64,000 nt of DNA, from the NCBI GenBank assembly GCA_000182565.2, contig KQ257461.1; one strand, 5' to 3'. Origin of the DNA: Spizellomyces punctatus DAOM BR117. Lineage: Eukaryota. The notes below the pieces were generated by a model, which searched no databases, was not told where the DNA came from, and was given only the letters and a program-made list of their open reading frames with translations. Position 1 is the first letter of the stretch. Each line of letters starts with the position of its first letter. Positions 51,001-52,749 of this stretch are shown one piece after another. The position numbers were made by a program, and so were the translations under genes.

Positions 51001-52749
51001 AAATGCTTTGTTTATAACTGTTTCTGGTGAGAGCAGATTTGGATTACGTCAAAACCTTTCTCCTCACATATCAATCCTTCACAACGGGTGCAATTCTCCT
51101 CCGCAAACTTATCGAACGGTAAGCACAAAAACTCACCGTATTTGCAAATGTCTCCAATAACTAACTTTCTTGATCAGCTACCACGCCCCTCGCTCCCGAA
51201 AAGCAACGTTTGCCTCCTACGACCATTTTCGACTCACGATCCAACTTCGAGTTTGCAACGTTATTCTCCAATGGGTTAAACGCCATCCGGCCGATTTCGT
51301 CGTTGGAAAAGACTTTTGGGCGGATGCCATGCGGTTTGTGGAGGATGTCCTTGCGTATGATCATCCGAGTATGGGGCGGCAGATTCGGAGGAATTTGGTC
51401 AAGATTGTGCGTTTTTTACTGTTGTGTCCTTTTTTGACGTTTGTTACTTACGGCTTTGTGAACTTCGTAGAAGGATAACACGCACCCAGCATTGGTAAAA
51501 CATCTTGTTCTAAAATCCCCACTCCGAGCCACCGACGGCGATCCCCGACGTTTCAACGTCTTCCGACATCCCCCCGACGAAATCGCCCGACAATTGACAC
51601 TCATTGAACATGCCTACTTCGCTGACATCCTGGTAAGCACACGCATAACTGATCACATCGATTCGGATAGATATTTATACCCTATTTCTAGCCATCCGAG
51701 CTACTCAATCAAGCATGGTCAAAACCCGATGCGCCAACCAAGGCACCCAATGTCGTCGCATTGACGAGGAGATTCAATGCAGTGGCGTGTTGGACCGCAA
51801 AGGTACGTGATTATCCCTTCACCGTTTCATATGCAGTTACTGACCATCCTGTAGTCCATCCTGGAAATGAAAACCCCACGAGCAAGAGCAAAACGCATTA
51901 CAGGCCTCGTTGAAATCGCCAGTGTACGTGTACCGTTCTCCACTGCATCCTCAACATACATTAACAGCTCCCCTTACACAGCAACTCTTGACACTCAACA
52001 ATTTCTCAACCCTCATGGCCATCATTGCTGGACTCAACAAAGCGGCCGTGATACGCCTAAAGCAGTCATTCAAGGAAATCGGATCAAAGACACTAAAAGT
52101 AAGATATATCTGAATAAGATTAAAATACTTGCAAAACACTGATGGGAAACGTACGCAATAGAAATTGACAGAGTTGGAGAAGTTGATGACGGCTGAAGGG
52201 TCTTACAAGGGTTATCGGGCGCACATGAGGACGGTTGGTATGCCCTGTATTCCATACATGTAAGTGCTGGTTCAAACAATTACCCTGGGGCGGATCTGCG
52301 TTTGGCAAATGGAGTCACTCACGCTAATCGGTTTATTTCGCTTCCCATTGGCAATTGTTATGTTCCATAGCGGTATGTATCAGTTTGAATTCCAACGCCA
52401 TGTACTGACCATTTCACTCATCATCTTTATTATCATTCCATCCCAGGCGTGTATTTAATCGATTGTAAGTTATCTATACATTACACAACTGCACTTTCCC
52501 GCAATTCTAACATTCCATCAAACAGTAACCTACATGGAAGATGGAAATCCCGACAACATTGGCCCCCGAATAAACTTTACCAAACGGCTCATGATCAGTG
52601 GAGTCATAAGTGAAATGGTTGGGTACCAACAAGTAGGATACAAGGACTTTAAGCCCGTCGATGAGTTGTATCAAGTCCTTGCGCGCTTGCCTGCCGCAAC
52701 AGAGGAGTACGAAAAAATACTATGGAGTGAGAGTAAGAAACGAGAATGA
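48082..52749 (+). CDS. RasGEF (REM + CDC25) preceded by about 5 tandem ubiquitin-like/FERM-F0-like domains; many exons including microexons
   Basis: [88 protein letters not shown]. Confidence 0.88.

Follow-up and report, generated by a model that had tools for sequence, protein, structure and literature searches.

Exons of a single nucleotide have been validated in plants, both for APC11 of Arabidopsis (Guo and Liu, 2015, PMC4674806), where a recursive model is mentioned as well, and for the plant genes APC11 and VPS55 (PMC8831610). In fungi, a 1-nt exon confirmed by SRA reads is described for the CYP621A P450 genes of Fusarium (Nelson and Syed, 2026, PMC12940212). The latter report also states that Arabidopsis, Drosophila and humans possess exons of 2–5 bp (PMC12940212), so that a length of 2 nt does not constitute a new size class. 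Within a window of 64,000 nt from the chytrid Spizellomyces punctatus DAOM BR117 (assembly GCA_000182565.2, contig KQ257461.1; all positions refer to this whole stretch), the dinucleotide CG situated between exon 17 and an 18-nt exon of a predicted RasGEF gene is with high probability a genuine 2-nt internal coding exon that is most probably included constitutively. With the plant 1-nt exons, it would share its nature as an ultra-short coding exon which lies between two regular GT-AG introns, is essential for the frame, was overlooked in annotation and is retained, here possibly, in related species (PMC4674806; PMC8831610), and the intron definition with removal of two introns one after another proposed for Arabidopsis APC11 (PMC4674806) would apply here as well. 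It differs from them in size, in its chytrid host, in its location within a catalytic-domain motif and in the neighboring 18-nt microexon, and it is predicted from sequence whereas the plant cases are validated. The likeness to Fusarium CYP621A consists in a phase mismatch in a conserved motif (PKG there, PYIGVYL here) which is solved by a tiny exon providing the G of a glycine codon, and in both cases the exon was deduced by comparison with intron-free relatives (PMC12940212). In contrast, the Fusarium exon belongs to Ascomycota, has 1 nt in the arrangement AG-G-GT and is read-confirmed, while the RasGEF exon belongs to Chytridiomycota, has 2 nt in the arrangement AG-CG-GT and is deduced from the DNA letters (PMC12940212). 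The CG exon would be an addition to the known class of ultra-short exons and would introduce no new principle.

Neither recursive-splicing ratchet points, that is, zero-nt exons, nor fungal stwintrons contribute any bases to the mRNA. They resemble the RasGEF locus in that one interval needs two splicing reactions, probably in sequence, but differ from it in that the two RasGEF bases would stay and be translated, and in that removing either intron neither creates nor completes a splice site of the other. A stwintron, in which a splice signal of the outer intron is disrupted by an internal one, was rejected, as both flanking introns, in the following called A and B, bear complete signals of their own and removal of the whole interval shifts the frame.

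The RasGEF gene is encoded on the plus strand (48082..52749) and comprises 20 exons in our hand-built GT-AG model, with an open frame of 3414 nt corresponding to 1137 aa. At its 3′ end, the CG dinucleotide reconciles the phase 2 end of exon 17 with the phase 1 start of the 18-nt exon (Table 1). An initial annotation had claimed that CG is required for forming the RasGEF motif, and indeed, when CG is included, the frame stays open through VYLIDL to the TGA stop codon. Equally in agreement with that claim, skipping of CG shifts the frame after PY, with a reading of PYMRVFNRFNLHGRWK that runs into stops. All exon and intron elements assigned by the initial annotation were found, except that exon 17 ends at 52259, whereas 52260, given as its end, is already the first intron base. 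Both introns bounding CG (tag|CG|gtatgt) have their own signals including CTRAY sites, that is, the previously noted GCTAAT in intron A with a branch-like A located 43 nt from the 3′ end and ACTGAC in intron B with the A 38 nt from the 3′ end.

For assessing alternative solutions, every GT-AG, GC-AG and AT-AC intron within 52200–52460 was enumerated. Ten single introns retain the frame, namely three GT-AG and seven AT-AC introns. The latter, U12-like candidates were rejected due to lack of a U12 donor consensus and the odd inserts they produce. The three GT-AG introns all result in loss of conserved residues, with donors at 52211 (larger deletion), 52238 (giving TVG|VYL) and 52247 (giving MPC|VYL). 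When two introns are allowed, with fixed outer sites and every internal exon of a length of 2 mod 3 considered, three exons are free of stops, and among these CG alone has a GT donor and alone gives the conserved motif. Rejected were an 8-nt internal exon yielding PYIHSRVYL and a 26-nt internal exon yielding an insert of eight residues, both relying on GC donors, which score at −7.0 and −7.7 bits.

Strength of the splice sites was evaluated with matrices trained on the gene's 17 remaining introns together with a read-supported intron in the 3′ untranslated region (3′UTR), hence with small and noisy matrices of 18 sites. The donor following CG (52373) reaches 8.3 bits and ranks within the better-scoring half of the true donors (n = 18; 1.7–11.0 bits in leave-one-out scoring), and only one of 226 decoy GTs, located in another intron, attains this score. 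The intron A donor (52260) shows a similar value of 8.0 bits. With a matrix covering positions −6..−1, the acceptor preceding CG obtains 5.2 bits, exceeding 13 of the 18 true acceptors and equaled by 9 of 214 decoy AGs, and the intron B acceptor obtains 5.4 bits (likewise 9/214 decoys). Intron A has 111 nt and intron B has 74 nt, compared with 50–78 nt for the remaining 18 introns, while a fused A+B intron would extend over 187 nt. In 20000 dinucleotide-preserving shuffles of this 187-nt interval, an AG-N-G-GT arrangement with at least 40 nt on each side occurs by chance in 3.4%, and with the extended consensus (YAG and GTRHG) in 0.1%.

The motif region was then compared in 12 named chytrid and aphelid gene models, conclusions on these relatives being drawn from their proteins. 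The sequence PC[IL]PY[IL]GVYL is intact in four models, whereas seven are broken exactly at the motif, each in a different manner, and one is uninformative (Table 1); among the models from Spizellomycetales, six of seven are broken there. One of the Geranomyces models (P0001) still retains MPCIPYI, hence the codons ahead of the break are preserved, and none of the Spizellomycetales relatives has lost VYLIDL. An intact motif is also found in all seven of the jgi/lgn/ena proteins (P0011–14, P0016, P0017 and P0034), and three metagenome contigs without introns (L002–L004) uniformly read CCA TAT ATT GGT GTx. The latter are AT-rich (25–28% GC), each with one uninterrupted frame of 990–995 aa showing FERM_f0/RasGEF architecture and UTR-like flanks, and look like transcripts or sequences from an intron-poor lineage. 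In the Pfam RasGEF profile, exon 17 covers positions 119–151 with its final Y at 151, and the V of VYL corresponds to 154 (in the metagenome contig L001 treated below, where the match is below the cut-off). From this profile gap it follows that exactly two residues are missing between exon 17 and VYL. The diverse failures of gene predictors in the relatives would fit the same phase mismatch being present in their genomes. In S. punctatus itself, the public model SPPG_06715 (P0010) ends with ...MPCIPYM*, where ATG TAA results from translation running directly into intron A, and thus lacks approximately the last 80 catalytic-domain residues (those beyond position 151 of the 181 in the Pfam profile); this truncation is probably attributable to the inability of gene predictors to place the 2-nt exon. 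The product of the last coding exon matches the C-terminal parts of proteins from Geranomyces and Fimicolochytrium with 78–81% identity, all having the common end ...ESKKRE. Protein searches did not retrieve transcript-derived fragments from S. punctatus, and the proteins P0032 and P0033 begin at MEDGNP and are silent on the junction.

A candidate for a corresponding arrangement is present in L001, an AT-rich contig of 2042 nt from a metagenome; its last RasGEF exon shares 54% identity with that of S. punctatus. It reads ctttag|AG|gtaaatg, a 113-nt intron and ccatttag|GT GTA TAT TTA ATA GAT TTA ACA TAT ATG, that is, the 18-nt exon is fused with the last exon, and the acceptor falls within the Gly codon in phase 1, where it also lies in S. 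punctatus. The candidate 2-nt exon AG (127–128) would give ATA GGT for Ile Gly, its first base being a synonymous change (ATA versus ATC) and the G being kept. The RasGEF genes of both sequences are followed by a convergent citrate synthase gene (PF00285), located at about 53400–56000 (−) in the window and at 692–1939 (−) in L001, and due to this common neighbor (microsynteny) the loci are regarded as orthologous. The citrate synthase gene of L001 has an intron between GFGHR and VYKSYDP which is lacking in the gene of the window. In shuffles of the 241 upstream bases of L001, AG-N-G-GT is obtained in 1.9%, a share that falls to 0.34% when YAG and GTRH are required.

For transcript evidence, four runs (RNA run X9 bearing the same species label and three contig runs) were mapped to 50700–52900. 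Run X9 contributed 627 reads of up to 60 nt, which accumulate close to the ends of transcripts in the manner of 3′-tag data, and joints were listed when represented by at least three reads. The first mate corresponds to the RNA sense, as a plus-strand GT..AG joint was present in first-mate-on-plus reads and a T-run was found before 52426 with first-mate-on-minus coverage. The resulting sense profile (Table 1) fits splicing at 52259 and a polyadenylated sense mRNA containing the last exon. The DNA contig of run X3 shows zero differences over 50700–52346, thus spanning the boundary of exon 17 and intron A and stopping short of CG.

Several observations weigh against the proposed constitutive 2-nt exon. 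An in-frame canonical alternative is available, as a single intron from donor 52238 (GTATGC) to 52446 could be used in the main mRNA, resulting in a protein without MPCIPYI. This donor has 5.2 bits, which is within the range of the true donors, and predictors have made similar deletions in P0003 and P0004. Nevertheless, such an intron is very improbable, as PCIPY, which is present in all intact relatives, would be lost and the MPCIPY(I) codons are conserved in frame in P0001, P0006, P0007 and P0010, unlike intron sequence. Moreover, the intron would have 209 nt compared to 50–78 nt of the others, and in X9 the sense depth is 1.51 in the bin up to 52253 and drops only thereafter.

A further point against the 2-nt exon is that with a wider matrix (−20..+2) the acceptor preceding CG obtains only −3.7 bits, less than any of the 18 true acceptors, and 183 of 214 decoys perform as well. 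Since the two matrix widths contradict each other, the score is uninformative, and the acceptor, having 12 pyrimidines in 20 positions, mid-range for the gene, was treated as ordinary and not as positive evidence. Its weakness in wide matrices would also be compatible with CG being a regulated cassette, the 2-nt exon being real but its skipping resulting in a truncated inactive GEF or a target for decay. The frameshift with early stops obtained by skipping is in line with such a role, and a minus-strand polyadenylated RNA, which ends 54 nt from CG and overlaps the downstream exons, might influence the process. On the other hand, no reads of the skipped form were seen in X9 (neither were those of the included form), the donor following CG is among the strongest of the gene, and published 1-nt exons are described as constitutive (PMC4674806; PMC12940212). 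A regulated cassette is therefore considered unlikely. Accordingly, the obligatory 2-nt exon proposed in the initial annotation is supported by the enumeration, splice scores, intron lengths, relatives and L001, while for the splice-dependent on/off switch suggested there no evidence was obtained; constitutive inclusion agrees better with the conservation and with the strength of the donor.

Also weighing against the 2-nt exon, no joint at CG, in either the included or the skipped form, is among the X9 joints with at least three reads, local sense depth being 0–1.5. As no junction read was obtained and P0010 stops at PYM*, the public model might be correct, or the gene might be decaying with the downstream frame as a relic. 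Such a scenario is hardly credible, however, as the frame of the 18-nt and last exons is open and well conserved through the common ...ESKKRE end, the last exon is covered by sense polyadenylated RNA, and about 80 residues of the catalytic domain would go. Another concern is that the X3 contig ends before CG and may derive from the assembly's own sample. An indel of the assembly close to where exon 17 ends or the 18-nt exon begins could feign the phase mismatch, with CG being just a chance dinucleotide of an intron. This is a draft assembly with two 100-N gaps elsewhere in the window, and 52347–52450 is not covered by an independent DNA contig. Yet, an error of this kind is extremely improbable, as X3, although possibly not independent, is free of differences over the 52259/52260 boundary, the same phase problem is implied by the models of at least five other species, L001 has the same layout, and the chance of a dinucleotide flanked that well is 0.1%.

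The comparison with relatives likewise includes points against the 2-nt exon. In Powellomyces hirtus (P0007), which belongs to the same order, the motif is intact, so either the arrangement is not order-wide or it was modeled there from transcripts. The L001 contig does not reach the upstream exon, making AG only a candidate exon, and the neighboring introns there, as judged from frame changes, have about 118, 155 and 200 nt, hence a single intron of more than 241 nt would be compatible by length.

If CG is indeed an exon, introns A and B would be removed sequentially and not together, as only 2 nt separate the 3′ splice site of the former from the 5′ splice site of the latter. In this fungus with its short introns (50–110 nt), each intron would probably be recognized by itself through intron definition. 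The AG of intron A is located inside the stretch that would pair with U1 at the intron B donor, and both sites are thus presumably not engaged simultaneously. Either order of removal would spare the signals of the other intron. Regarding the origin, the phase-1 intron position in the Gly codon is common to S. punctatus and L001, and the likeliest history is that a second intron was gained, or slid, 2 nt from this older intron. Similarity among introns A, B and C as well as to the L001 introns is not significant (shuffle fractions of 0.30, 0.13, 0.05, 0.40 and 0.93), hence there is no sign of an origin by duplication. It is conceivable, although rather doubtful, that the 2-nt exon is ancient and predates the split of Spizellomyces, Powellomycetaceae (Geranomyces, Fimicolochytrium), the AT-rich lineage of L001 and perhaps Batrachochytrium. 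In this case, it would have persisted over hundreds of millions of years within the catalytic motif of a Ras activator and rank among the oldest and smallest conserved fungal exons, and the obligatory ordered removal of abutting introns would represent a natural test bed for a spliceosome dealing with sites 2 nt apart.

Irrespective of its age, the proposed exon would correct the public model of a Ras exchange factor in S. punctatus, a genetically tractable model chytrid, and the same correction is probably due for the models of at least six relatives, including that of an amphibian pathogen. An early-diverging fungus would be added to the handful of organisms recorded as having 1–2-nt exons (plants, Fusarium), and the pair of short introns separated by 2 nt, with an 18-nt exon behind them, would form a compact natural substrate for studying sequential use of mutually exclusive splice sites. 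Our literature search, with supplements and papers not under Creative Commons licenses lying outside its scope, did not yield any work linking chytrids or Spizellomyces with microexons or naming SPPG_06715.

Judging from its detectable RasGEF_N and RasGEF profiles, the gene is a RasGEF (CDC25-homology) guanine nucleotide exchange factor (GEF). The domain layout comprises a FERM_f0-like domain (PF16511), RasGEF_N (PF00618) and RasGEF (PF00617), as deduced from Pfam matches in an exon-by-exon scan. There are two matches to PF00617, one over the cut-off (E 3.4e-09, 37.3 bits) and one slightly below it (E 1.6e-04, 22 bits), while the match to PF00618 is below the cut-off (E 2.8e-04). In the full-length relatives P0001–P0010, PF00617, PF00618 and PF16511 are all present, and the public proteins closest to our model are chytrid ones. 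SPPG_06715 is 99.7% identical over 1057 aa (model residues 1–1057) and deviates from the hand-built model in just three features: the C-terminal end described above, an N-terminus extended by 24 residues (MNSQRAG...) from a short upstream exon (47949–47968, donor 47969), and an acceptor of exon 10 (50815–50820) placed 6 nt downstream of that of the hand-built model, by which IQ is dropped. Two runs of exactly 100 N, representing scaffold gaps, are located at 31706–31805 and 46625–46724 of the window, the second about 1.3 kb upstream of the RasGEF gene.

Table 1. Elements around the CG dinucleotide, sense read depth of RNA run X9, and state of the PC[IL]PY[IL]GVYL motif in gene models of relatives; intron and exon positions refer to the window.
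Feature	Position	Strand	Observation
Exon 17	52162..52259	+	ends ...ATG CCC TGT ATT CCA TAC AT (CCATACAT), coding for MPCIPY, then two bases of the Ile codon; ends in phase 2
Intron A	52260-52370	+	111 nt, GTAAGT...CCATAG
2-nt exon CG (proposed)	52371-52372	+	third base of Ile codon (AT+C) and first base of Gly codon (G+GC)
Intron B	52373-52446	+	74 nt, GTATGT...CCCAG
18-nt exon GCGTGTATTTAATCGATT	52447-52464	+	GC GTG TAT TTA ATC GAT T, (G)VYLID(L); phase 1 start
Intron C	52465-52525	+	61 nt, GTAAGT...AACAG
Last coding exon	52526..52749	+	(L)TYMEDGNP...ESKKRE, stop TGA 52747-52749
X9 sense depth	52180-52253	+	1.51
X9 sense depth	52254-52327	+	0.16
X9 sense depth	52328-52401	+	0
X9 sense depth	52402-52475	+	0.34
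X9 sense depth	52476-52549	+	0.74
X9 sense depth	last exon and 3′UTR	+	10-80 (10-70 over last exon)
P0005, Rhizophlyctis rosea			motif intact
P0007, Powellomyces hirtus			motif intact
P0008, Synchytrium microbalum			motif intact
P0015, Amoeboaphelidium			motif intact
P0001, Geranomyces			MPCIPYI, then 24-residue read-through
P0002, Geranomyces			motif scrambled
P0003, Geranomyces			IPYIG deleted
P0004, Fimicolochytrium			IPYIG deleted
P0006, Thoreauomyces			KKR inserted after PYIG
P0009, B. salamandrivorans			nine residues replaced
P0010, S. punctatus			truncated at PYM*
P0020, B. dendrobatidis JEL423			model stops about 25 residues before motif; uninformative

Besides, the mapped reads revealed features downstream of the junction. 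The 3′UTR of the RasGEF sense transcript contains a 69-nt GT-AG intron (52768–52836, +) beginning 18 nt past the stop, which is represented by the joint 52766->52836 (cut +1) in 30 reads with 11 starts. On the minus strand, a polyadenylated RNA was detected at a 3′-tag depth of 40–80, which is not comparable with that of the sense strand as expression level. It ends at 52426 within intron B, 54 nt from CG, with the T-run present in 12 reads. This RNA (52402–52900) is antisense to the 18-nt and last RasGEF exons and, according to a contig of run X2, spliced with an intron at 52720–52790 (CT..AC on plus). It may represent a long 3′UTR of the convergent citrate synthase gene, and this convergent antisense RNA may affect the order in which the RasGEF introns are removed. 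At position 52583 of the window, A>C was observed in 8 of 51 reads of the minus-strand transcript with 7 starts, which could be an allele, a strain difference or an error.

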